Under the pieces are notes generated by a model. That model saw only the letters and a list, made by a program, of their open reading frames with translations, made no database searches and had not been told where the DNA came from. A DNA stretch of 37,770 nucleotides from assembly GCA_023231475.1 (NCBI GenBank), contig JALJEE010002753.1, forward strand, positions 1-37,770. The letters are read 5' to 3'. Within the stretch, counting starts at the first letter, position 1. Each line of letters opens with the position of its first letter. The position numbers and the translations under genes are program-made. Positions 65 to 36,941 of this stretch are shown here, piece after piece. Source of the stretch: Seison nebaliae. Lineage: Eukaryota.

Positions 65-137
65 GGCCGCGTGGCCCAATGGACAAGGCGTCCGACTTCG
101 AATCGGAAGATTGCAGGTTCGAGTCCTGCCGTGGTCG
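65..137 (+). tRNA. tRNA-Arg (anticodon TCG), eukaryotic, intronless
   Basis: 73-nt cloverleaf GGCCGCG-TGGCCCAATGGACAAGGCG-TCCGA CT TCG AA TCGGA-AGATT-GCAGG TTCGAGT CCTGC-CGTGGTCG. A and B boxes present, no encoded CCA, T5 run at 141-145 (Pol III terminator). Confidence 0.97.
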
Positions 138-1760: not shown

Positions 1761-2670
1761 GAAATAAATAATCCGGCTACCGTCAAGACCTTCTTATATG
1801 AACTTTATCTTATTTTGGAAGAGAGATGTAAATTGAACTATTATCTTCCTTATCTTCATCATCAAATATATTCGACCGTTCGACCGGATTTCGGATTAAG
1901 TTCGGGAGAATTTTATAACAATTTAAATTCCTTCAATTCCTTCAAGATTCATTATTTCCGGATGATTAACGTACTTCAATAATAGAATGTTGTGAATCCC
2001 AAAAAAACGTGTCGAGAAGTTGAGGGAAATATTGAGGGAATGAAGAGAATTTATTAAATTGATCGAGAAAGAACTGTCTTCTACAATTTCTAGAAGGCAA
2101 GAGAAGTTGATGGTTTTTACTGATGTTCGTTCATTATTTCTTTCCCATAAATATGGAGAGAGCTGTTCTTTTCAAAAACCATAAAATGTGAATGGGTGAA
2201 GGAAGTGAAAGATGGTGGTGATGGAGGAAATGTATGTATTAAGTGAAGTTTTTACATCTCTTTCCCACTTTAGAAATTGATTGTGAAAAGGAAAATTTCC
2301 GTGATTATATTGATCTTCTTCGTTGTCTTGAGGAAATGTATTTGTCAAACAGTGTTTGATGAGAAGAATATTCTGAAGAGAATGTTTATAAATATATTCC
2401 TTTCCTATGTGATCACAATCGACGACAATCAATTATGAATAATGAACTCGCTTCATAACAACAACAGCAACAACAACAACAACGACAATTATCGTTTTCA
2501 CAGTAACATTAATAAATTTAATGAATTAAATGAAATTCTTGTAAAATTTTTTCCTTTGTTTCTTCCACAAAAAACATTTTATTTAATTTCTACCTCATTG
2601 CATCATCGTTTACAATAATCGGCGTCATCTTTCAACGTGTAATTGAAACAAGAAAAATATTTTAAACGAC

Positions 2671-5094
2671 ATGGGAAATCATGAGAAGAATTCCGAGAAT
2701 CGAATCGATACCAAATGGACATGTGACAAGTGTACATATATTAATGAATTCAATAAGAATCTCTGTCGAATTTGTGAGAATGATCGAACAAAACATAAAT
2801 CTCTCGAAAAATCGAATAAAAAGAGCGATTATCATCATCATCAACAACGGAATAATCATCGATCAATTTTTCAACAGAATCTCCAAAATAAAAAATCTCA
2901 TCCCACCACCTCATCCACCCAACAACAACAAGACCAACAAACAACAACAAATAATTTATCGAGTTCGACAAGAAAGAAACTGAATGAAGCGAAATATCGA
3001 CGGAATCGTAGTCGAACAAAAGCTTCGAATATTTTATTGCAAGAACAATGTTTATCACAAATCGAATTAGATAATATTGCAAAAAGATTAAGAAGTAAGA
3101 ATAAATTGTTTGTTGATCATACTTTTCCACCAACCATCCAATCGATAATTGGAAAGGAGAATAGTAGAAATCAATCAGATAATGGACTTCCAACATATCT
3201 TCAAGATCGTATGTCTCAATCGACGAATTCAACATCACTCGTCTGGTTACGTCCTCATGAATTATCATTGGAATCTCTCACATTAATTTATCATTCATGG
3301 AAAGTGTTCCGAGATGATCTCGTACCATCAGATGTAGAACAAGGAATTCTCGGTAATTGTTGGTTCTTATCAGCTTTAGCAGTTCTCGCAGAACGACCAG
3401 ATCTAATAAGAAATATTATGTTAACAAGTGAATATAATAGTTTGGGAGCATATCAAGTCAGATTATGTCTGGATGGAATATGGAAAAGAATTATGATTGA
3501 TGATTTATTACCATGTGATAATGTCACAAGAATTCCATATTATTCAAAACCGTTAAGGAAACAATTATGGGTTCCTCTTATTGAGAAAGCAGCAGCTAAA
3601 GCATTCGGTTCTTATTCAGCGTTGATTGGTGGTTATCTCGTCGACGGTTTAGCAACTTTGACTGGAGCACCTTGTGAATCGATTGCTGTTGTACCAGATA
3701 CAGATTCCGATGTAACATTAACTTCAGATATTATTGATAATCATCTCCAAGTGATTTGGGCGAAGTTATTAAGTGCGAAAGATGCCGGTTTCTTAATGGG
3801 AATTAGTTGTGGTTTTCGTGTCACTCAACAAGTCTATGATGAAGTTGGATTACATTCACGTCACGCTTATAGTATTTTGGATGTTGTTGATATCGATCCG
3901 AAATTAGTTGATCATAATGAGAATGATGGTCCTATACGTTTGGTGCAGGTACGTAATCCATGGGGAAGAACGAAAGATAAATGGAGGGGAAAATGGAATG
4001 CGAAAGATCGAATTTGTTGGACAAGTAAAATGATCAAATTATTAGGAGATCCAAAATTATTAAATTCAGCTATTTTCTGGATATGTCTCGATGATGTATA
4101 TAAATATTTCGATTCAATAATTGTTTGTAAAGCGTATCCGAAATATAAGAAGAATGAAGGATGGCATGAAACGAGAGCAAGTGGTGCAGTTTGGTATCAG
4201 AACTTTTCTTCTAAATGTCATGTCTTTCTTCTTAACGTCTTCGAAACAACTGAAATGGAAATAACTTTATTTCAAAAACATTCTGAATATGAAGATATGT
4301 TGGATGTTGGATTTGTTGTAAATAAATTGGCGAATGAAGATCAATTGAATGAGAGAAGTAGAAATAAACGTCGAATTAATTTCGTCGGTTGTTCAGAAGT
4401 TTCACGAATCGGTGATTGTGTCATGTATTGTGGGAAACAAGTGTCTCATAGTGTCGCTAGTAGTGGCTGGTTCGATCCAGGTCAATATATTATTACTCCT
4501 ATGGCATTTAGTCAAATCATTCCGAATGGAAATAATTCTGGAAAAAAAGTTACATATCCTTTCAACATCGTTATTCATAGTAGTCAATCGATATTTCTTG
4601 ATCATGATCGTTTTCCTTCCACGCATATTGCTGATGCTGTAATTTCTTGTGCTAAACGTTTTGGAACTCCAACTTATCTGAGAGACGAAGCAACTATGTT
4701 TGCATTAATGAGATGTGCTGGTGCCATTCTGGTAACAGAGAATCGTCACAAAAGTCATTTCTTACATGTCCAAACGAATGTTAATGATGATCCTAATCTC
4801 ATTTGTTCTCGTGGTGGTTTGACATGGGTCGATTCCATTCCTCCAAATAGTCGGTTAGTTTTACTTCTCTTTTACTTTTATTTCACTTTTATCATTTCCA
4901 TCTTCAGAATGGTAATGGGCGTCTTCTCCCAAGTCAGTTTCACAGCTGGATATGTCCTACGACATCAATGTCGACATCGATTAGTTAATCGAGCTCAATT
5001 AGGCAGTGAATGGTGTCCGAATTATAATCAAGCAACTAATTCTCCAGGAATTACTAACGCCATTTCTGGTCTACATCTTCCCAGACAAATTTGA
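2671..5094 (+). CDS. CAPN15: Calpain-15 / small optic lobes (SOL)-type calpain, ~789 aa; exons 2671-4853, 4908-5094
   Basis: RanBP2-type zinc finger WTCDKCTYIN...CRICE, CysPc catalytic triad motifs QGILGNCWFLSAL / HAYS / RNPWG, and a C-terminal SOL-homology region (..DSIPP..R..SQ..; GLHLPR). An in-frame 54-nt GTT..CAG intron explains the Phe-rich insert in the ORF track. Confidence 0.9.
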   Translation: MGNHEKNSENRIDTKWTCDKCTYINEFNKNLCRICENDRTKHKSLEKSNKKSDYHHHQQRNNHRSIFQQNLQNKKSHPTTSSTQQQQDQQTTTNNLSSSTRKKLNEAKYRRNRSRTKASNILLQEQCLSQIELDNIAKRLRSKNKLFVDHTFPPTIQSIIGKENSRNQSDNGLPTYLQDRMSQSTNSTSLVWLRPHELSLESLTLIYHSWKVFRDDLVPSDVEQGILGNCWFLSALAVLAERPDLIRNIMLTSEYNSLGAYQVRLCLDGIWKRIMIDDLLPCDNVTRIPYYSKPLRKQLWVPLIEKAAAKAFGSYSALIGGYLVDGLATLTGAPCESIAVVPDTDSDVTLTSDIIDNHLQVIWAKLLSAKDAGFLMGISCGFRVTQQVYDEVGLHSRHAYSILDVVDIDPKLVDHNENDGPIRLVQVRNPWGRTKDKWRGKWNAKDRICWTSKMIKLLGDPKLLNSAIFWICLDDVYKYFDSIIVCKAYPKYKKNEGWHETRASGAVWYQNFSSKCHVFLLNVFETTEMEITLFQKHSEYEDMLDVGFVVNKLANEDQLNERSRNKRRINFVGCSEVSRIGDCVMYCGKQVSHSVASSGWFDPGQYIITPMAFSQIIPNGNNSGKKVTYPFNIVIHSSQSIFLDHDRFPSTHIADAVISCAKRFGTPTYLRDEATMFALMRCAGAILVTENRHKSHFLHVQTNVNDDPNLICSRGGLTWVDSIPPNSRLVLLLFYFYFTFIISIFRMVMGVFSQVSFTAGYVLRHQCRHRLVNRAQLGSEWCPNYNQATNSPGITNAISGLHLPRQI

Positions 5095-5945: not shown

Positions 5946-8900
5946 ATGACTTTGTTTAATCTGATAAATTTGTGGTCAGTCAAGGCTGACGTCGATTCTG
6001 ATGTCATATCACACGCAGTCTTACATCAGAATGAACGTCATTGTTTTTTAGCCACAGGTTTCATGAATGGAAAAATTTGTATTCATTCACCCGAATCAAT
6101 CAAAGATGATGAAACAGAACAATCGTCTGTTAATGATTTATTGGTAGAGAAGGACTTGAGTAATGATGGACCGTTACTCGATTTATCCTTTGGCAATTTT
6201 ACTGGAGATGTAAACGATATTTCGTTGGCTGTACTTCAATCGAAAATATTGACAATTTTCAGATTAATAAAATCTGAATTAGCAAATGGAATATTTTGTC
6301 TAGAAGCGGAACATACGAACCAATTCAAACATGATGCTTATAATTTCTGTACAGGATATTTTGGTCGGAATAAATGTTCCATTTCCATTATCATTTAATT
6401 AATAATTTTATATTGTGTTTGACAGATAAAGAATTTATTTGTGTTCAATCGATTGATGGATTACTGTTGATATATTGTCAGGGAACTTTCCACTTTCAAA
6501 ATTTCCTACCCAAATTCTTGATTCCTGGACCAATCACTTATCTACCATCCAATGATATGATTGCCACTATTTCCACCGCTTACTGTGTAGAGGCGTATCG
6601 GTTTTCATAAATTCATTTAACTTTTTCTTCAAATTTCTCGAAAAGATATCAAGATTTAGCGATGTGTACGTCAGAGGAAGGTAAAGATGAAGGTAAAGTT
6701 CTACAGGTTAAAAACCATATTTTCTTATTTACAAATTTAAAAAATTTTTAATAGTGTAACTGGTCATTGAATATAGGAGAATATGCGATAGATTTATATT
6801 CAATTGATATGGAGAATTCGAAACATCAAATTTTAATTTTAGGTTTCCTACTTCCAAATTACTTTGACCGTCATTTTATGTTGAAGGCGAACAAAATTTG
6901 TTTATGGCGAATGATGAAGGTAAATTGTTGTGGACAGTTCAACCCGAATCAAATTATCTTCACGCAATTCCTTATCGATCAAGTTTTTGATTTTTCAAAT
7001 CCTCTCCCTTTATCCATTATCTTCGTCAAGTTAATCATAAACAAGTCAATACTATTGCCATCACCGATAACAATTTACTTCATATTTTAGAAGATAAATT
7101 TGTGAAATGGTCATGCAAATTGGATGAGAACGTCTCCTCCGTCAATATCGTTCAATCGAAGTTCGATGGAAAATGGAAATTTCTTTTTTAATTTTTAAAT
7201 TTTAGAAATTTGAAGAATGTTGTTGTGACATTCAGTCCAAATGGATCAATTCATTGCTCATATTTGGGTACGGATCCTCAATTACAAACGAAAGCAGTCA
7301 AATATCGAGAAGTTGATATGTCGAATCATATAGAAAAACTGAAAACTCTCCAAAAGAAAATCAACGCAGAAAAAAATAATCCTGGTTAATTTCTTTTCTT
7401 TTTCCTTATTTAATTCTTTTAATATTTCCGTTCCATAGATAATTCAAGTTTATTATTAAACAGGAAAGATCAACAGAAGAAAATTAACTTGAAAGTAAAA
7501 CTTGAACCCGAATTGAAATCGGTTAGGAAAAGATTTATGAAAAAAGGTGAAAATTGAGAAATTTTATAGATTGACGCAACAATTTTTAGTAATTTGCCAA
7601 ACGAAATTTTATCTGTCGCCAGATATGCGACGTTACATGTTAATTTTACTTCCACTTTTTTTCCCTTAAATTTATTTGAATAGATCGAATGTCAAACAAA
7701 CGAAGTCTTATCGAAAATGATGTTGTCTATCGACGTCAAATCACCTTTAAAATGTAATCGTAGTCAAATCGTCTCTGATAGTAATTCTCCAACAATCGAA
7801 GAAGAAGTAAAGATATATTTAAATGAAATGGACATTCTCTGTAACGATTTGACAGCAACAGTCGTCGTTTCCATAACAACTACAAACGGTGGAGTATTGA
7901 GAAGAAAAGAAGAAGTGGCATTACCAATGAGATTGGTTATGGTACCATTTGCGTCGAATTTGAATTTAGAAGAAAAATTAACATTTAAATCAAATCAATC
8001 AATTCCATTACATAAACTCTTTATTGGTTTCTCCATTATTTAAAAAGGAAAATTTTAATTTTCTTTTAAGATTATCAATCATCTTCTTCTTCAACGGATA
8101 ATCGTGCAATCGGTTTCTCTTATTATAATATACCGAATTCCTCCGTAACTCTAGCATATAATCAAGGTTCGATAATTTTTTTCGATTCATCATTTAATTA
8201 TCGTTTTAGATCTCTTAAGAATCTGTAGTAATCATTTGGCATATTGTTCGTTGCCATATAAGGAATTATTGAAACGATTATCATCGAAATCATCAAATCA
8301 TGATGATTTTATGAAAGAGAATCCATTTGAATTAATTGGAACTTTTCCGTTTGCTTCGATGGAGAAATGGTTGAAGAGTTATTTGAATGATGAGAATGAA
8401 TTGAGGAGATTGGAGGAAGAGTTGAATAAAGCATCAATTCAATTTCGTGCTTTACAATTAATTACTAATAATAAAATGGAACACGCAATGAATAATAATA
8501 TGGAGAATTATGAAGGAACTTATGGAACAGCATATAATATTGTTGTGGAATGTTGTGAGAATTGTGAGAAAGTGCAAAAATTACTTTATTCAAATTATCT
8601 ACATTTAATTTCAATTTTTAATTTATTCATATCATTAATCCTTTCTGATAAACGAAATCGAATGCCGATTGAAGAGAAGAAACAATTATATCGTCAAACT
8701 CATTTGGGATGGTGGGAGAATGTGGAGGATATGAATATCGATGTTCTCATTGAAAGTATCCTCTACTATTCACTTCATGGTAGTAATAATAATAAGATAA
8801 CGAATATCTTAAAAAACAAAGTCCCAATATCGAACGATTCGTTAGAAGTTCGAAAGAAACGTCTCATGAATATCATTTCAATTATTTGGAATGCTAATGC

Positions 8901-9081
8901 TGAAGGACATATCGATGGAATAAAGAAAATTATCGAGTCGTTAACTGATCGAACTGATCGACCGATGTCGACCACTGTGGGAAAACATAATATTTCCGCT
9001 ACATCCGATTTCTCGAATTTACCACAAACCAGACCAACCACCGCTTTCGATGAGTCGATTTCATCACAAGTATTATTTTAA
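5946..9081 (+). CDS. BBS9: BBSome subunit BBS9/PTHB1, ~873 aa; exons 5946-6375, 6426-6600, 6646-6706, 6755-6842, 6887-6982, 7031-7160, 7206-7384, 7439-7521, 7570-7638, 7684-8026, 8071-8166, 8210-9081
   Basis: The spliced frame is open (2622 nt). PTHB1 motifs: MTLF..W start, ICVQSIDG, FLIPGPITY, WSLNIGE, LGEQN, HCSYLGTDP, QFRALQ, GWWE. It has 11 introns of 43-54 nt, all GTT..AG. Confidence 0.92.
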
Positions 9082-25647: not shown

Positions 25648-27984
25648 TTGAATTTGGATAGAGTCCGCTAATCCGTCGAATGATATTCAGTTGTAAATAA
25701 AAAACAAATTTCTCATTCGGAATGAGAATAATTAAATTATCTCTCAATTCTATTAAGAAAAGAACATTCATATATTATCTTCTCAATTGAACAACAAAAA
25801 TAAATTATATAATTACTCATTGTTTTTTCCTGTTAATTTAATAAACATTTGAATTAATTATGATTTAAATTATTTAATTTTTAAATTAATATAATTATTA
25901 AGATGTGAATGAATTATTATTATGGAAATTTACTTTTCGAGATCGGACGTGGGAATTTACGGAAGATATCCTCAACATTCTGTCGAGAATGTTGAGTTCT
26001 ATTAAAATGTTATATCGATTATATATCAAAGTCTTTATATTAAGGAATCTGTATATCTTTATCGCAGTGATGATATTATTAATGGTAGTAGTGGTAGTTG
26101 GGAAGAATAAAATAAGACGAATCTGAATATTTTTCCGATTTCCGTCTTAATAACGGATTCCATACGACTGATTATTATCTGTATGGATACATATAGATCT
26201 CGTCCCACATTTCGTCATCTGGTATTTTGCGGCGACGCATTGCTTCATCGTTATTTCAATCGATTCTTCTTTATTTCTTTATCGATTATCTTCTTCGAAT
26301 AAGAGAGATCTTCTTAATTCCAATACACGCCAATAATAAATATTTCCCATTCGAATAAGAGAAGATTAACATGAAAAAAGAAATGAAAGAAGGAAAATAT
26401 CCGTTCTCAACAACATCCGACTTACTTTACATTTCTCTTAACGTATTCTATATTTATCATTCCATCTTAATATATACAGTATATGTATTACTCCATTATC
26501 AGGATGGAGGGGTGAGTTGAACGAATTATTCTTCATTCTCCAAAATTATTTCAATCTTCTCCGTTTGTCTCGTTGGATTCTGAACTATATTCGATTTCGT
26601 CATTTTGTATTTGACAAGGTGAAATTTAGTTAAGTCAATCTAAATTTGATAGTTATGATTATTGGACATGTGAGAGGAAAGATATGGAGAAAGAAGTTCC
26701 TTTTTTGAACCGAACGGTTATAGTAATAATACTATAACCGTCGATTAATATTCTCACAATTGTCACCAATATTTTATGACATGTGTTTCTCGTTGAATCA
26801 TTGAAGATGAATTCATAAGTGTGATACTGATTATCTTCAATATCAAAAAGATCGTTATAGTATCATCTATAAAACGTTGTCTTTCTGACACGTAGTTCAT
26901 CGAAATTACTACAATAATTCGACTAACAATACCTAGATCAATAGCAATGAACAGCCGTTCATTTTATCTGTGAGGTAGAAAAAGAAGGAGAATATTCTCC
27001 ACCTTTACATCGGTTTTGAGATATTGTCATGTCATGTCATGCTCCCACAGTTCAGTTTTATTCTCTTTCTTCCTGAAGAAACCAATTTTGGTTATACTAT
27101 GGTTGTACAAAATTGTATACCTAATACCGTTGCCATCATGTAAATGTAAAAAGAGAAAAGCGAATGGTTTTTAAACCACAAAACGTGAAATTATTTTATC
27201 TACAAGACATCTCCATTTAGGTCTAGAGAGATTTAGATTCTATTCTGCGGTTGCTGGAGTCAGAAGGGAGAAGAAAAGAGGCTAATATGTAGAGATGGTT
27301 TGTAGATGTTGTTCGTCTAAAAATTCATCTTCGATATACGGAACATCATCAGGTACATCTATTCAGATGAGATATTTAAGTATATTCATGAATACATCGT
27401 AGGGAAATATATGTACCTGAAACCATATACTATTTACCCATACATGTATTCATTCAAAGAAAACTACTTGTTTATCTTTTTTATTTCTTCATAAAAATAA
27501 GTGAGTGAATATAGATTCATAGATCTTGTAATTTCAACCATCATATTTCTCCCAACATCTTCCTATTATTATTATTCTTCTTTGTACAATAATTCTTATT
27601 CCCATTTTCACCTTCATCCTATGAAATTAACTTTTCTTCGTCCCAATGACATTTATTTCTATTTATTAGAATAGCATTGAAAGTTAATACGTTAAAAGAA
27701 ACTACTAAAATTCAACTTTAAAATTCAACCAGTTCTTTTTATTCCCATCGAATAGAAAAACAATTAAATTATTTCATTCTTTTGGGTAGTCCTAGTACGA
27801 TACGACAGGATATCTATTTCATTTCCTTTTGCCGTTTCGTGTCAAGTATCGGATATCTCATTCATTTGACTATCTCACCTAAAAAATACCATTTTCGATG
27901 TTTATTCTTAACACTTCTCCCTTATTTACATATAAAAAACTGAACAGAATGTAAATGGTTCTCATCAAATAATCTTTCCCTGCA

Positions 27985-30699
27985 ATGATGGGTGAAATGT
28001 TATGGATTATTCTTTCTCTTCTTCTACCGATCGTTTTATCCGAATATCGACTTGTTTGTTATTACGCCAATTGGGCCCCTTATCGTGATCTACGTCCAAT
28101 CTTATATCCTGATGATATCGATCCTAAATTATGTTCACATATTCATTTCGCCTTTGCTCGCATCAATCCGAAAACGTTAGAGATAACACCAACAGAAAAA
28201 CATGACACTGAATGGTTACCATCGTCAGGACCGGTTAAAATAAACTTTATTCATAATAAATTTATTATTTTTATTTAATTAATTCTAGCCATTATATTTT
28301 CGAATGAGTCGATTAAAAATGACGAATATCGGTTTGAAAACGATATTGAGTATTGGAGGATGGAATGCTAAGTCAACGGGATTTAATGCGGCTTCCAAAA
28401 ATGATAAAAATCGGTTTGGCTTTTTTCTCTAAAAATTGAATTTTAAACATTTTCTAATTAACATTTTGAAGAAGAAAATTTGCTACGCAAGCGATAAAAT
28501 TCTTAAGAATGTGGAATTGGGATGGAATGGATTTGGATTGGGAATATCCTGGTGACTTACAACGTGGCGCTGCTGAATCATCAAAAAATGATTTTCATCA
28601 ATTACTGCGAATAGTTCGAGATGAGATTACTAAAGAATCAATGTTAAGTGGAAGAGAACCGTTGTTGATTAGTTCAGCAGTTTCTGCAAATCCACTCAAA
28701 GTTATTAAAGGATATGATGTCAAAGAATTTTGCCAGTTCAATTTTCTTTAACATATTTCAAAATAATTTAATTTTCAGTTTAATGGATTATGTCAATATT
28801 ATGACATATGACTATCATGGTCCATGGGATAATGTGACAGGATCTAATAGTCCATTATATAATTCGATAAATGAAGAATCGACTTCCATTAAAAAAACAT
28901 CGAATGTTCCAAATATGAGATCTGATGAAAATGTTAGAATATTAAGATCGATGGTTGAAACCAATGAATATGAGAAACATCAAGATAAAACAGCTTATGA
29001 TAAGGATAACAGTTGGAAGAATGCCGTTAGTATATTTTTTATGGAATTTTTTATGCATTTTTTTTTGTAGAATTATAGTATATTTTTTTGGATACGTAAT
29101 GGTTGTCCACCAAAAAAATTGCATTTGGGCATAGCTGCTTATGGGAGAACGTTCATTATGAATATTTCATCGTTAAATTCGAATTTGAAACGGAAAAATT
29201 ATCGTACAGAAATTGTTGATGAATTCAGTGGGAATATTGTGCAGAATAATTCGACAATTAGACCACCACATCAATTTGAACGGAATGCGAAATTATTTTC
29301 AGCCATACCAAATATTGGGACTCCCATAATATCGCCGGGTAAATCGGGAAGATATTCGAAGGAGCCAGGTGTCCTCACTTATTATGAAGTTTGTGAGCAG
29401 TTATATATTAAACGATATAAGAGAGAATGGTTATCCGACGAATTAGTTCCATATGCATATAAGAATGATGAATTTGTATCATTTGATGATTCAGTGTCAG
29501 TATATCATAAAGTGAAATATGTGAAATCATTAGGATTGGGAGGAGTGATGTTATGGACGAGTGATATGGATGATTATTCGGGACGATTCTGTTATGCTGG
29601 TCCATTTCCTATAACGAGAACTATACGAATGTTATTGAATGCGAATAATACGGATACAAATAAAAAGAATTCTTATTCAACCAATACGACGAGAAGAACT
29701 TCCACACCATTTCAAACGACGTCCATATCGATAAAAAAAGAAAAAAGAAAACAAAAGAATTCTCATAATGATCTTCTGCAGTACGAGAAGGCATTCAATG
29801 AAATACATTCAGCTGCTGATTTTATTAAAAATTATCGGAAGAATAACAAAATGACAACCACTCGACCTACAACCACCACCAAATTGACGACGCGAGTAAA
29901 TTTTAAGAAAATTATCAAAATAGAAAATTTTGATAATCGACCAAAAAATAAATTTTATTATAATACAGCAATTAAACAATCAAACAACAACAACAACAAC
30001 AATAATAATAATATAAATATTAATAATCATCAATATTATAATGAACAATTGTTTGAGAAGGATCTAATGAATGATTTAACATCATTTCAATCTGATAATG
30101 ATGATGATGACGACGATTTATTTCCATCTATTAATAATAATAATAATCCATTTCTTTATGGATATCATAATCAATTTGATTGGCAATCACCATTATTAAA
30201 TGGATTATCTAATCGTTATCGAACGACAACAACAACAACAACAACGACGATCATACCATCATCAACAATATCACATTTCCCGAATGCTTATAATCTAATC
30301 GCAGGATTTCTGGAACAACATTCCAATTTTAAGAATGTCAAAGATTCACTCTTACAATATGCGAACATCCTTCATCCGGAATTATCATCCAATATTTCTG
30401 GTCTAACATATCAGAAAGAAAAGAAGAGTAAACGAATCGACTCTAAACTCATATCTACTTATAACAATTACAACAATAACAACAACAATAACTTCTATAC
30501 ATCAGAATTAGTTACGAATTCGACGGATATTCAGCCAATCTTCCTGACTACTAACAGAAATAAAATGTTTAGATTGGTGGGAAAACATAAAGAAAAATTT
30601 TATGATTCACAACATTCCAAAACTAACAAATTATTTTTGAATCCGAAAATTATTATCTTCTTATACTTTTCTCATACCTGCATCCATTTTCTATTCTAG
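27985..30699 (+). CDS. GH18 chitinase, secreted, ~837 aa; exons 27985-28233, 28289-28413, 28472-28735, 28779-29025, 29071-30699
   Basis: Signal peptide, LVCYYANWA, CSHIHFAFA, SIGGWN, intact catalytic DGMDLDWEYP, MTYDYHG, YGRTF, YYEVC, GGVMLW..DMDD, then a low-complexity Thr/Asn tail. Confidence 0.95.
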
Positions 30700-30927
30700 A
30701 ATTTTCTTTTTACTAATTTCTCTCTTTTTCACGTGTACATTGCATAAAAATAAAAATTATTTGTATAATTCAAATGAGACATCTCCAAAAAATCTCCTAA
30801 AACATGAAATAAGTCGATCAAAAGAAAATATTTCCTTGGATATAATTCAAATTTGAGGCACGTGACGTTCTTTGCTTTTTTCATTTCTTCTTACACTATT
30901 GATCTTAAACACGTCTCATTACTCATT

Positions 30928-33900
30928 ATGGACATTTTCAACAATTTCTTAAAAGTGCATTCATTGAATCTGGATATTCTCTATGAAGAAGATTTGTCGT
31001 TGGAGAAGATAATTGAGAAGACGGCAAAGACAGATGAGAATCAATATAAACATTATTTGATGTTTCATTCCATTTTACCGATTAATCGATTCATAATCAT
31101 TTCAACTCGTTTAATTCATCTAATTCATGAATCATATAAAGAATTCTTACCATTCTTTCTCGACGAATGTTTGACACGTACGAAAAATTTCATCCGACAC
31201 TTTTCTGAATGGCGCCGACTATTTCCCATCGATCTCAATTTGAGACCATTCATCAAGCAATTGGATAATAGAATAGCATTATATTTCGAAATGCTGAAAC
31301 AATTGAATGAAAGTCTCGTTCGATCATCTGATACGAAATGTTTACAGAGACAATTCCGTCAATTTCTCCAAAATTTAGATCAGAAAATCGATTCGGAGAA
31401 GAAGGTGAATAAACCATCAGATATTCTCATTCATGTCATCGTTAATAATCGTGTGGAATGTGATGTTGTATATATTTTGTTATCTCATTATTTCAAAGAT
31501 TTCAAATTAATCATACCATATCGTTATTCGTTTTTTGATGAATTATTGAAATCATTTCAAATTAAATCGATCGAATCCGTTTTCCTTCTCATGAAATATT
31601 TACAGATGAATAATATCGATCGAATTGCCAATTATTATCAATCAGATTTTTCATCCAATCGACCAATAATATCAATTCATTATAATGAAGATGATCGAAT
31701 ATTTCGTGAGAAGATTTATCTACAGGAAACTCCATTAATAACATCAACATTAGAAATGAATAAAATATTATCAAATATTGATACGAAAGTAAAAGAGATA
31801 GATTACGAAATTAAATTCCCTAAAGATTTCAAGACTGTTGAATATCAAAAAACTCAATTCAAACCACCAACCTTCCATATTAGAGGAACACCTGAATACC
31901 AATTGATGGTGTTATATCTCGGATTTTCCGAACAACAACAAAAATATATCGAACGTGTTGTAGAGAAACAGTTAGAAACGATAGTGGAGAAGGAGTTGGT
32001 TCTCATTCCTCAAACAGATATTAATTTCATTATTAAATTTTTCAAAGAATGTTTTCATCAACAATTACTTTCGCCCTTTATTTTGCTCGTTCCCAATCGA
32101 TTTCATGAAAATGAACAGAAAATCTTGAACGGATTGACAGTTGAAACGGTATTGAAATTCATTGAACATTTTATTATTCTATTCGAATCGTTTCGAAAAG
32201 ATTCTTATCATTTTCATACGACGAGACAAATCGCCATAATCGAAGAACTTTATTTTCATTTGTTGAATAATTTGCCGTTATTCGAGAAAGTTTTCTTCCA
32301 ACTCTTACCAGTTTGTAAGTTTAGTGGATTGATTCGATTCTCTCAAATCGGTTATACTCATCAAACCATCACTGATGACCAATTGACAGAATTGAAAGAG
32401 AATCATATAACGAACGTTTCATATTTCAATCAAATTATCAAAGCTAAACGTCTCACCATCACTCAGAATCAGAAGAATGAATTTGAAGAACAATATTTAT
32501 TTGTTGAATTGGAAGTTTATGAGAAGATGTTCAATTTACCTGATTGTATCAAAAAGAAGGAAACAAATGCATTCTTTGAAAATGATCAAAATTTCTCCAA
32601 ATATTATTCAGTTTTTGCAAAACTCGACGAACATAACAATTATTTCTTCTTCCCAACAAAGACTAAAACGTCCCCATCAAAAGGAGATGGTGACAATACA
32701 GAAAAATTGTCGTTAGCACATGTACCTTATTCGGAGAAGATTTGTGCGTTACATGTCAATCGACAATCTCTCAACGAACCGATAACAAATACGAAACATT
32801 CAGCCGTTCGTTATTGTTCACCTGATCATTATGCCGATTTGTGTAATGATCGTCTATTATTTAAACGTCTTCGATTGAAGAAATTCCTTCATATTTCATT
32901 TTTCTTTATATCGAAAATGAAAGATGTATTTGGAATTGTCGATTTTTGTGATCGATTTCAATCATTTTTAAATATTCATATTATTATCGATTATCCATTT
33001 ACTATAAATTTCGATCGAGATTTTTTTGTGGATAATCTCATAGAATTATTTAATCGAAATGATGACGATTTATATTTCCATTTGAAACGATTTTCAAATA
33101 AATTCTCTATTTCAACAACATGTGAAATTAGCGATAAGATTCAAGTGGATTATGACGAACAATGTGCCAAATTGAAAGAATTGAAATTATTGAAGAAATT
33201 ATTCATAAAAAATTCGGAAAGAATCCATTTGAGATTTGAAGAGATCATGCAAGTTCTAACAACCAAATCAGTAATAAATTTAAATAATTTGGAATTTCCA
33301 GAATTTCTCGGTGACTCATTACTCGATTTTATCATGGCACTCTATGCATTTAATTTGCGTGATACTGACAAAGATATGACGAATTTGAAAAGTGATCTTA
33401 CTGAGAATCGATATTTGATGAATCTTTCCCGCAAACATTTACCACTCAAAGACAATATTATTCGAATGTCGTTCGAATATCAAAATAATTTTGTTCCATC
33501 ATTCTTTTCAGCTGCTCCCGAATCATTAGATCCCAAATCCATTGCTGATTCCATCGAAGCTTTAATGGCACTGTTGTATGTGAAAGGTGGATTTGATTTG
33601 ACATTAGAATTCTTTCGCCACTTTTTTGGAAAACAATTTAATATTTTATGTAAATTAGTCACCGAACAATTGGATATGACACCACATGAAAATTCCGAAT
33701 ATGAAACATTTAGTCGTTCCATTCTCCGATATAAATTCCATGATCTCAATCTCCTCAAACGAAGTCTGTTAATGAGGAACGTGAGTAACACAGTGAATAA
33801 TGAAAGTCTCGAATTTCTCGGTGACGCAATTCTAGATTTTCTCGTCACTCTCGCCATCATTCAGTATTTGATGGAGAAGAAACTTTATGATTGCTTGACC

Positions 33901-34584
33901 CCAGGAAAAATTACATTAATCCGATCAAATATTGTTTGTAACGTCACATTTAGCGTTCTAGCGTACAAACATAAATTTTATAAATACGCTTATGGTAGAT
34001 GTTTGGAGGAAAAACGTGAAGATTTCGAAAATCTTTTTAATCAATTCTCTTCTGATTCTCGAACGGGAAAAAATATTCCGATCGATATCAATCGATATCT
34101 CGAATTGGAAAACGATCAATATTTGGAGAGAGATGTTCAATCAATCATTCATAAAATACGAGAAAATCGAACAGCCACTACTCACAAAAAACGAACTTTA
34201 CTCGAATTCCAAATTGACGAAGCTAAAACTTTTCATAAAATTTTTAGTGACATGTTCGAATCGGTTGCAGCTGCCGTTTACATCGATAGTGGAAATGATA
34301 TCGAATTAACATGGAAAGTTTTCCATCCATTCTTAGCAACACAAATCGTTTATGCGTGCGAGAACGTCCAGAAGACGGTGAAAGCAAGATTGCACGAAAT
34401 GAATCAGACTGTCGATTTCCAAACGGAAAATAAAGGAAATTTACAAACATTAGTCAACTGTCGCATCATCATTGAAAATCATCAGTATGTCATCAAGATG
34501 ATTGGAAGAAATCGGAAATTAATTACTGATCGTCTCTCATATCGGATAGTGAAAGCGTTGGAACAAGTCGATTTGAAATCATAA
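30928..34584 (+). CDS. Dicer-like endoribonuclease, intronless and divergent, ~1218 aa from the first ATG
   Basis: RNase IIIa (EFLGDSLL at 33301, KSIADSIEAL) and RNase IIIb (NESLEFLGDAILDF, T..RS.IV.N, KIFSDMFES..AAVYIDSG), followed by a dsRBD-sized C-terminus. Remnant motif FFLDECL at ~31153-31173 and a PAZ-like segment at ~32590-32760. Confidence 0.88.
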   Translation: MDIFNNFLKVHSLNLDILYEEDLSLEKIIEKTAKTDENQYKHYLMFHSILPINRFIIISTRLIHLIHESYKEFLPFFLDECLTRTKNFIRHFSEWRRLFPIDLNLRPFIKQLDNRIALYFEMLKQLNESLVRSSDTKCLQRQFRQFLQNLDQKIDSEKKVNKPSDILIHVIVNNRVECDVVYILLSHYFKDFKLIIPYRYSFFDELLKSFQIKSIESVFLLMKYLQMNNIDRIANYYQSDFSSNRPIISIHYNEDDRIFREKIYLQETPLITSTLEMNKILSNIDTKVKEIDYEIKFPKDFKTVEYQKTQFKPPTFHIRGTPEYQLMVLYLGFSEQQQKYIERVVEKQLETIVEKELVLIPQTDINFIIKFFKECFHQQLLSPFILLVPNRFHENEQKILNGLTVETVLKFIEHFIILFESFRKDSYHFHTTRQIAIIEELYFHLLNNLPLFEKVFFQLLPVCKFSGLIRFSQIGYTHQTITDDQLTELKENHITNVSYFNQIIKAKRLTITQNQKNEFEEQYLFVELEVYEKMFNLPDCIKKKETNAFFENDQNFSKYYSVFAKLDEHNNYFFFPTKTKTSPSKGDGDNTEKLSLAHVPYSEKICALHVNRQSLNEPITNTKHSAVRYCSPDHYADLCNDRLLFKRLRLKKFLHISFFFISKMKDVFGIVDFCDRFQSFLNIHIIIDYPFTINFDRDFFVDNLIELFNRNDDDLYFHLKRFSNKFSISTTCEISDKIQVDYDEQCAKLKELKLLKKLFIKNSERIHLRFEEIMQVLTTKSVINLNNLEFPEFLGDSLLDFIMALYAFNLRDTDKDMTNLKSDLTENRYLMNLSRKHLPLKDNIIRMSFEYQNNFVPSFFSAAPESLDPKSIADSIEALMALLYVKGGFDLTLEFFRHFFGKQFNILCKLVTEQLDMTPHENSEYETFSRSILRYKFHDLNLLKRSLLMRNVSNTVNNESLEFLGDAILDFLVTLAIIQYLMEKKLYDCLTPGKITLIRSNIVCNVTFSVLAYKHKFYKYAYGRCLEEKREDFENLFNQFSSDSRTGKNIPIDINRYLELENDQYLERDVQSIIHKIRENRTATTHKKRTLLEFQIDEAKTFHKIFSDMFESVAAAVYIDSGNDIELTWKVFHPFLATQIVYACENVQKTVKARLHEMNQTVDFQTENKGNLQTLVNCRIIIENHQYVIKMIGRNRKLITDRLSYRIVKALEQVDLKS

Positions 34585-35083: not shown

Positions 35084-36941
35084 ATGTTTATTCGTAAGAT
35101 TACATCATCCTTCAACAAACCGTTACTTCGTCAACATCAACAACGAAGATTACTTTCATTATCGTCGTTGTTAAATATAAAATTTTATGATTCGGCAACA
35201 TCGGCAATTGATGATATTCCATCCAATTCTAAATTATTAGTGGGTGGATTCGGTGTTTGTGGAACGCCAAATGAATTATTGAAAGCTTTATCGAGTAAAC
35301 GTCATATAAACAATTTGACGGTTGTATCGAATAATTGTGGTTTACAAGATTTCGGTTTGGGACTTCTACTTAATGAACGACAAGTTCTTTTTTGAAATTT
35401 TGTTAATTTAAAATTTTTCTAAAAATCTCAGATAAAACGAATGATTTCTTCTTATGTTGGAGAGAATGCAGAATTCGAACGTCAATATCTTTCCGGTGAA
35501 TTAGAAGTGGAATTGACACCACAAGTTTATTTGAATCTTTTTCAAAAATTTTTCAATCGAAATTTCCAGGGAACTTTAGCGGAGAAAGTGAGAGCTGGTG
35601 GTGCTGGTATTCCAGCCTTCTTTACAACGACTGGTGTAAATACTTTGATACATGAAGGTGGTGCTCCAATTAAATATAACGACAAAGGAGAAATTACTGT
35701 GAAAAGTAAAAAACGAGAAGCAAGAACATTCAATGGAAGAGAATATATCATGGAGGAATCAATAACAGCTGATTACGCTTTAATTAAAGCATGGAAATGT
35801 GATAAATTGGGAAATTTAGTATTTAGGAAAACAGCAAATAATTTCAATCAAGCAATGAGCAAAGCAGCGAAAACAACGATCGTGGAAGTAGAGGAAATAG
35901 TGGAAGCAGGAGAATTACCATCTGGTGCCATTCATGTTCCATCAGTTTACGTTCAACGCATTTATAAAGGAAAAGATTATTCGAAAAAACGAATCGAAGT
36001 TAAAATTGTTTTAAATTAGAATGAAAATTATGAAATTTCTCTAAAAGAAAGTGAGAAATTTTGATCCGAATGAAAGTTCAATGATTAAAGACAAAAGAAG
36101 AGATAGAATCATTCGTCGAGCAGCATTAGAATTCACTGATGGAATGTATGGTTAATATTTTCACGAGAATTTTAGAAAATTTTAAATTCGAATAGCAAAT
36201 TTGGGAATTGGTCTCCCGACCAAAGTGGCAAATTATATTCCGAAAGATATTTCCGTTTATCTCCAAAGTGAAAATGGAGTTTTGGGTCTGGTTATTTTCC
36301 ATTTTCCATTCGATTAAATGTATATTCTTCAGGATAATTATCCTTTGAAAGGAGAAGAAGATGCTGATCTGATTAATGCAGGAAAAGAAACAGTAACTGT
36401 TCGAGTTGGTGCTGCATATTTTGGAAGTGATGATTCATTTGCAATGATTCGTGGGTTCTCAATTGACTAAAATATCTTTAAATAATTATTCGTATTTAGT
36501 GGCCATATCAATATGACGATGTTGGGAGCGATGCAAGTGAATGAATTTGGTGATCTCTCCAATTGGATGATTCCAGTTTAAATCTAAAAAAAATTTTTCA
36601 AATTTTTCAAATTGTATTCTTAAAAATATTAGAAAATTATGGTGAAAGGAATGGGTGGTGCCATGGATTTAGTAGGTGCTGCTAGTACGAAGGTCATCGT
36701 TGTCATGGAACATACGACGAAGAAAGGTGGAGCGAAGATCTTAAAGAAATGTCAACTTCCATTGACTGGAAAACGAGTTGTAGATAAAATTATTACCGAT
36801 ATGGCAGTTTTTGAAGTAGATAGTACGAATGGTCTCTTATTGACGGAGATCTCTTCAGATACATCAGTCGATGAGGTGAAGAAAGTAACTGAATGCCAAT
36901 TCACAACGTCACCGAACTTAATTCCAATGAAACAAATTTGA
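35084..36941 (+). CDS. OXCT1: Mitochondrial succinyl-CoA:3-oxoacid CoA-transferase (SCOT), ~508 aa; exons 35084-35383, 35432-35524, 35570-35998, 36048-36150, 36196-36290, 36333-36454, 36500-36575, 36633-36941
   Basis: Arg-rich presequence, [47 protein letters not shown], catalytic [30 protein letters not shown]. Seven GTT..AG introns restore the conserved alignment. Confidence 0.97.

Follow-up and report, generated by a model that had tools for sequence, protein, structure and literature searches.

Dicers cut both strands of double-stranded RNA (dsRNA) with a pair of RNase III domains, the distance from the PAZ domain to the active sites sets the length of the product, and ATP-driven threading of the substrate requires an intact helicase, according to the accounts in PMC10328071 and PMC9645528. 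HEL1 of the mouse enzyme locks a closed state, and without it the enzyme is more active on long dsRNA and on hairpins whose stems or loops are long (PMC9645528). Drosophila Dicer-1, the dust-mite Dcr2/3 and the Giardia Dicer are described as Dicers whose helicase is degenerate or absent or whose PAZ has diverged (PMC9645528, PMC5805368, PMC10328071). Helicase-poor Dicers are already known, from the fly Dicer-1, the mouse DicerO, Giardia and the dust-mite Dcr2/3. Here we describe a Dicer gene of Seison nebaliae, a small crustacean-dwelling relative of rotifers (Pararotatoria within Rotifera), in a stretch of 37,770 nt (assembly GCA_023231475.1, contig JALJEE010002753.1, positions 1 to 37,770 of the forward strand; the window hereafter). 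The gene (P0001) is a single-exon open reading frame (ORF) of 1218 aa at 30928..34584 on the + strand. The reading that we prefer, with somewhat better than even confidence, is that of a conserved Dicer with intact RNase III sites and no ATPase motifs, probably derived from a compact rotifer family of the RNA interference type through deletion of Hel1, and likely to cut dsRNA independently of ATP, once per binding.

Rotifer Dicers are of two kinds, a single-copy Dicer-1, which groups with spiralian and deuterostome Dicers, and a compact multicopy family with intact ATPase motifs. As Dicer-1 we used P0052, P0503, L001 and L002 together with A. steineri g6841 and Brachionus A0A3M7S6C3, the last two from the supplement of PMC7943196, which contains a tree and an alignment of the rotifer protein. 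The compact family comprises Rotaria P0404 and P0452, Adineta P0017 and the partial Pomphorhynchus laevis P0248, which joins it once N-terminal blocks are added to the tree. The exact 1218-aa Seison sequence is present in NCBI/nr. No description of the protein was found in the literature on Seison and acanthocephalan Dicers, the scope of which left aside subscription papers, one figure of PMC12256650 and bioRxiv supplements; the supplements of PMC12256650 and PMC8351084 hold no text with the word "dicer".

The Dicer gene and its RNase III core

Profiles built from 41 and from 55 Dicers align residues 736-1213 of the Seison protein over RNase IIIa, RNase IIIb and a C-terminal dsRNA-binding domain (dsRBD), at a probability of 99.9. 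The initial annotation of the window had proposed four acidic catalytic positions in each RNase III domain, and all eight fall in Dicer catalytic columns, together with the lysines K870 and K1104; every motif that it quoted is present in the ORF translation. RNase IIIa lies at 33235..33627 (E792, D796, K870, D874, E877) and RNase IIIb at 33685..34347 (E962, D966, K1104, D1108, E1111), both on the + strand, as are all further parts of the gene. The dsRBD (34360..34566), which the annotation did not mention, is placed by the profile alignments and by an alpha-beta-beta-beta-alpha fold with a predicted local distance difference test score (pLDDT) of about 90. The C-terminal part of this alignment-guided AlphaFold model is mostly at 80-96 pLDDT outside the RNase IIIb loop. 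Pfam run on the whole protein reports RNase III only, twice, and Pfam alone gives no match to the dsRBD family PF20932. Dicers of solved structure score 53-61 bits against the Seison protein and Drosha 22-23 bits (Drosha sequences were absent from our trees); as anticipated in the annotation, the protein is on these scores a Dicer and not a Drosha, and it has a motif IV-like helicase element, which Drosha would lack.

The core also has unusual dimensions. The two RNase III signatures are 170 aa apart, as compared with a median of 207 in 109 Dicers, 191-210 in the compact rotifer and acanthocephalan Dicers and 277 in Dicer-1; the RNase IIIa insert is indeed missing, as had been observed, and this is not peculiar to the Seison gene, the compact Dicers being short here as well. 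A second feature not previously recorded is the long RNase IIIb loop (33994..34227). From signature to lysine it spans 142 aa, the third longest of 318 (median 101), with 153 aa in bdelloid Dicer-1 and 93-109 in the compact family. It should also be noted that the EFLGD signatures of RNase IIIa and RNase IIIb are encoded by an identical 15-nt stretch (33301-33315 and 33811-33825), for which we estimate a chance of about 0.035, and that RNase IIIa carries a IIIb-like D800 in a column that is K in all 55 aligned Dicers. Local conversion between the two signatures is possible but weakly supported.

The gene model is consistent across sequencing runs. One contig each of runs X1, X2 and X3 covers the ORF, the sole difference within it being synonymous, and read depth is even with that of the neighboring genes. 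The window is AT-rich, eukaryotic DNA, and the gene maintains 1218 stop-free codons at 31% GC; it has no introns, as against many in bdelloid Dicer-1. Directly upstream lies a GH18 chitinase-like gene (27973-30699, + strand) with a long, low-complexity tail rich in Thr and Asn. Because the gap from its stop to the Dicer ATG (30700..30927, + strand) is 228 bp, too small for a Hel1 exon and without a CAG/TAG acceptor, and a six-frame scan of the whole window with a Dicer hidden Markov model (HMM) found no further Dicer pieces, upstream exons within the window do not supply a helicase.

Selection on the gene is seen through a diverged copy of low depth (2-5; runs X2, X4 and X5) that covers 30978-34566 and is 80-91% identical over the 11 pieces listed; its contigs were retrieved at 80% likeness, and 40 of the 84 differences are shown. 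Two replaced stretches each add 6 bases and keep the frame, and no stop arises. The gene is under purifying selection, as seen on RNase IIIa, because all 10 of 10 changes in the core of this domain (residues 770-794) are synonymous (P about 2e-6). The N-terminal piece compared, residues 28-39, is much freer than this constrained core, with 7 nonsynonymous and 3 synonymous codons; identity is 85% over residues 157-175 and 89.5% over residues 485-497. Two S. nebaliae strains are reported in the text of PMC8351084, and the diverged copy probably represents a second Seison lineage in the samples.

The N-terminal region and the probable loss of Hel1

No Walker A (GxGKT), motif II (DExH) or motif VI (QxxGR) pattern occurs in the Seison protein, in agreement with the earlier remark on Walker A; GKT/S is present in 208 of 237 other Dicers. 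The most credible helicase element is a strand and helix resembling Hel2 motif IV (VIVNNR; residues 168-190, 31429..31497), which had been suspected from the start. In shuffle tests it was the best of 28 blocks built from 310 Dicers (p=0.002, 500 shuffles), and a Hel2 HMM was equaled by 4 of 300 shuffles. None of the other 27 blocks stands out, one platform block reaching p=0.044, and the best colinear chain of blocks scores 17, where shuffles give 12.7 +/- 2.8 and 16 of 200 reach that score; the same score is 261 for the Pomphorhynchus and 457 for the Rotaria Dicer, both of which were in the training set.

This motif stands unusually early. It lies at about residue 170, whereas in 237 other Dicers the minimum is 311 and the median 392, and in the compact rotifer family it lies at 392-488. 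The DECL tetrapeptide, which had been taken for a remnant of Walker B, precedes it by 91 aa, as compared with a minimum of 183 between DExH and motif IV in 251 Dicers. Because motif IV is so early and DECL too near it for a Walker B, a segment as large as Hel1 (about 220 aa) has probably been deleted in front of motif IV, and DECL is probably due to chance. Residues 1-165 (30928..31422; DECL at 31162) are predicted to be all-helical at low confidence (pLDDT mostly <50), two structure models giving helices only in residues 1-155, likewise at low confidence; the HMMs and the 28 blocks gave no significant profile match there. From its length and position, this segment is probably Hel2i or a helicase remnant. 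A Hel1 profile match with z=4 at residues 320-410 was rejected as an artefact of lenient gap costs, with many gaps and a position downstream of motif IV.

Between motif IV and the RNase III core, residues 191-765 (31498..33222) presumably hold a degenerate Hel2, DUF283, platform, PAZ and connector, for which two colinear mappings are possible. MAFFT and a glocal profile place the platform at about residues 440-540 (439-541 by the profile, with 5 of 100 shuffles as good), which would leave about 90 aa for PAZ. A candidate platform helix (residues 480-505, 32365..32442) has a pLDDT of 81-85 in the alignment-guided model, a circular result. The alternative mapping, made by eye, keeps NFSKYY...EKICALH (32590..32754) as PAZ, as the initial annotation had proposed, and shifts DUF283 and the platform forward. 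Neither mapping is significant, and the proposed PAZ lacks statistical support: PAZ profiles are equaled by 85 of 300 and 91 of 100 shuffles, the model PAZ has a pLDDT <50, and the first mapping puts the domain elsewhere. No HMM matched DUF283, whose candidate positions are residues 211-285 or 360-420.

In the collections searched the protein has no close relative. Its best match to another sequence was 77 bits among 192 and 93 bits among 741, and among the 150 matches listed no best stretch begins before residue 702. Pfam found no Dicer families in seven subregions, attempts to align the N-terminus, globally with hhalign and in pairs, produced no match, and an ESM Atlas structure search returned scores <0.8 or no match. 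A single-sequence AlphaFold model of residues 1-701 has a pLDDT of 34, and the alignment-guided model matches mouse Dicer 7zpi (Z 24.7) and Drosha 5b16 (Z 21.9), a comparison which is circular, its alignment having consisted of Dicers only.

Family assignment and rival explanations

Spacings place the Seison Dicer nearest to the compact family. From motif IV to the C-terminus it measures 1049 aa, the compact members 1050, 1059 and 1071 aa and bdelloid Dicer-1 1549 aa; from motif IV to RNase IIIa the values are 622, 631-646 and 1008 aa, respectively. The Seison protein matches 1 of 12 RNase III columns diagnostic of Dicer-1, where the divergent Dicer-1s of Macrostomum, C. brenneri and Trichinella match 9-10 and that of Trichuris only 2. 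On a fixed backbone, placement beside bdelloid Dicer-1 was rejected (P of the approximately unbiased test, pAU, 0.006-0.017), and placement beside Pomphorhynchus or the compact family was not; sisterhood to the three bdelloid compact members alone was also rejected. The earlier trees, including this last test, left out 11 of 53 rows, and the fixed-backbone and simulation trees 13 of 40. Descent from the compact family appears reasonably probable to us, and descent from Dicer-1 a less favored possibility.

Several results weigh against the preferred reading. Correction for 28 tests raises the p value of motif IV, the one motif on which the Hel1 deletion rests, from 0.002 to about 0.06. Dicer-1 sisterhood is not rejected in a free constrained search (pAU 0.56), nor is the alternative, and the observed log-likelihood difference of -20.4 is reached or surpassed in 4 of 30 data sets simulated under Dicer-1 descent and in 2 of 30 simulated under compact-family descent, so that long-branch attraction can account for the rejection of Dicer-1 by the trees. 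A long RNase IIIb loop is common to Seison and bdelloid Dicer-1 and foreign to the compact family, and fixed N-terminal blocks, drawn by eye and in one case off by a residue, give +32 for bdelloid Dicer-1 and -12 to -20 for the compact family. Rare-state sharing (6/82, 12/132 and 18/200; background 2-12%) does not separate the rival families.

The gene might be read, though only tentatively, as the reduced Seison form of rotifer Dicer-1, orthologous to this microRNA Dicer. It would have lost the ATPase consensus first and then Hel1 and the long linkers, and would cut precursor microRNAs (pre-miRNAs) without a check of loop size. Dicer-1 is already degenerate in this direction: in the bdelloid protein Walker A reads HSQTSKN and motif VI KGKAR, and degeneration has gone further in the Brachionus copy. 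Such an origin would also suit the similar RNase IIIb loops (142 and 153 aa), the outcome of the constrained search, the slight lean of the simulations, and the production of microRNAs in Seison without an RNA-dependent RNA polymerase (RdRP). The spacing from motif VI to DUF283, 69 aa under the MAFFT mapping, is close to the 73 aa of P0503, the shortest of 273 (median 93), but this point hangs on the unproven mapping. The orthologue would, moreover, have had to lose about 760 aa in several places, in a species whose BUSCO proteins are, as reported in the text of PMC8351084, no shorter than those of its relatives; and the compact-family spacings, the single diagnostic column of 12 and the rejection on the fixed backbone all stand against it.

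That the helicase decayed in place, so that DECL is what is left of Walker B within a collapsed Hel1 and it is Hel2i that was deleted, is an unlikely account; it would yield an ATP-independent enzyme whose TRBP/Loqs-type docking site is gone. MAFFT does align FFLDECL with the motif II column, but DECL is outside the top two positions for the motif II block, the Hel1 HMM does no better than shuffles (73 of 300 score as well), and both structure models give long helices and no strand near residue 79, at low confidence. Of the two courses, a deletion of Hel1 suits the data better; of the decay that had been proposed for the helicase, the loss of the ATPase motifs is retained and its course revised. 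A decaying or nonfunctional copy, or an assembly or contamination artefact, is very improbable indeed. The near-neutral ratio of the N-terminal piece and the lack of introns could be cited for it, but an ORF of this length in 31% GC DNA, its even depth, the wholly synonymous changes in the RNase IIIa core and a diverged copy with frame-keeping indels of +6 and no stop are hard to reconcile with it.

The Seison Dicer was also proposed to be a fast-evolving paralogue. Its end branch is very long (4.2; median 0.51, rotifer Dicer-1 0.39), and the compact-family spacings agree with that proposal. The neighboring Calpain-15/SOL-type gene (2647-5094, + strand; RanBP zinc finger, nearly intronless) has a branch of 2.69 as compared with 0.28, tenfold, and the long branch of Seison has been noted in print (text of PMC8351084). 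The length of the Dicer branch is partly common to this neighbor, and speed alone is no mark of a paralogue; in addition, by simulation the trees do not exclude Dicer-1 descent, and the Walker A of rotifer Dicer-1 is already degenerate. No second Seison Dicer was recognizable among 356 RNase III sequences, in searches not designed for one (the P0248 query missed P0001).

Some observations concern the comparison sequences themselves. In bdelloid-type Dicer-1 (L001:2922-9437; P0503) the Walker A consensus is gone but DECH remains, and the RNase IIIb loop is long and acidic. The top match P0241 (Trichuris muris, 1473 aa) lacks the Pfam DEAD domain and keeps Helicase_C; its cluster has a 1659-aa member, which suggests a short gene model or an isoform. 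P0017 (Adineta ricciae, 2097 aa) has four RNase III matches, probably because its gene model joins two Dicer genes that lie in tandem. Elsewhere in the window, a multiexon CoA-transferase with short introns of about 50 bp lies at 35084-36941 (+ strand), which we take to be SCOT-like; the exons at 5946-9081 (+ strand) presumably belong to a gene resembling BBS9/PTHB1. The sole Rfam match in the window is a tRNA gene at 65-137 (+ strand).

Predicted mechanism, microRNA precursors and known systems

If the preferred reading of a compact-family Dicer without Hel1 is correct, Dicer biochemistry suggests that the two RNase III domains would pair, cut both strands and leave 2-nt 3' overhangs, with the dsRBD clamping the duplex. 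Without Hel1 there would be neither translocation nor a closed-state lock, and the enzyme would accept long duplexes, as well as hairpins in which the stem or loop is long, in the manner of mouse DicerO; the RNA end is probably still held by what remains of the platform/PAZ cap, degenerate as it is. By analogy, the enzyme is likely to be ATP-independent, distributive and tolerant of long substrates.

Such tolerance can be set beside the microRNA precursors of Seison. According to the text of PMC12256650, its hairpins measure 75-175 nt (mean 117), with means of 59-74 in its relatives, and it has 29 microRNAs, keeps piRNAs (PIWI-interacting RNAs) and lacks RdRP. The regions excised by Dicer average 62 nt in Seison and about 15 in most animals, and Seison is one of three animals listed with uniformly long hairpins (as given in PMC12553114). 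The cause of the length constraint on pre-miRNAs is an outstanding question according to the account of MirGeneDB 3.0 (bioRxiv 2024.09.27.615356). Hel1 loss may be tied to long pre-miRNAs only if the Seison protein is the Dicer that meets them. Possibly, though we regard it as doubtful, this protein is the sole Dicer, Hel1-less and ATPase-less, and carries out all microRNA processing, the loss of loop checking having let every pre-miRNA lengthen: a natural, organism-wide DicerO state. Speaking against a simple link between Hel1 and hairpin length, fly Dicer-1, together with Loqs, is able to process a long hairpin in vitro, and Hel1 loss is therefore not required for single long precursors. As the sole Dicer, the enzyme would process the uniformly long pre-miRNAs of Seison, and the question of the length constraint would become testable; as only a second Dicer, it would be an RNA interference-type enzyme without a motor in a lineage lacking RdRP, maintained by selection even as 760 aa lost recognizable similarity. 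We found no evidence for an antiviral or anti-transposon role or an atypical product length, as had been speculated, in an animal without RdRP and with piRNAs kept (PMC12256650, in its text).

Compared with known systems, the Seison protein is most like the compact bdelloid Dicers and P0248 in its length from motif IV to the end, its short RNase IIIa and its Pfam scores for PAZ and platform, which are low or missing. GSGKT, DECH and QSKGRAR are retained in the bdelloid members, and motif VI in the partial P0248, whereas Seison has none of them; it also has about 220 aa fewer ahead of motif IV and a longer RNase IIIb loop, and is only 21-25% identical to the family over 386 RNase III columns. 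With rotifer Dicer-1 it shares degeneracy at Walker A and motif VI and the long RNase IIIb loop, but Dicer-1 has 1977 aa, clear PAZ, platform and DUF283 domains, the RNase IIIa insert, a long linker from PAZ to RNase III and a short branch (0.39).

Among the helicase-poor Dicers of other lineages, dust-mite Dcr2/3 are described as lacking DUF283 and the dsRBD, and the Giardia enzyme as lacking the whole base and the dsRBD, whereas Seison keeps a dsRBD and a helicase remnant. Mouse DicerO also has no HEL1 and keeps the core, and as described in PMC9645528 it is ATP-independent and tolerates extended stems and loops. DicerO is, however, an oocyte isoform of a conserved gene with HEL2, DUF283 and PAZ intact, whereas in Seison the loss is in the genome itself and what remains of the N-terminus is barely recognizable. 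The Seison gene is real and encodes a functional-looking Dicer, a variant without ATPase motifs among the helicase-poor Dicers already known.

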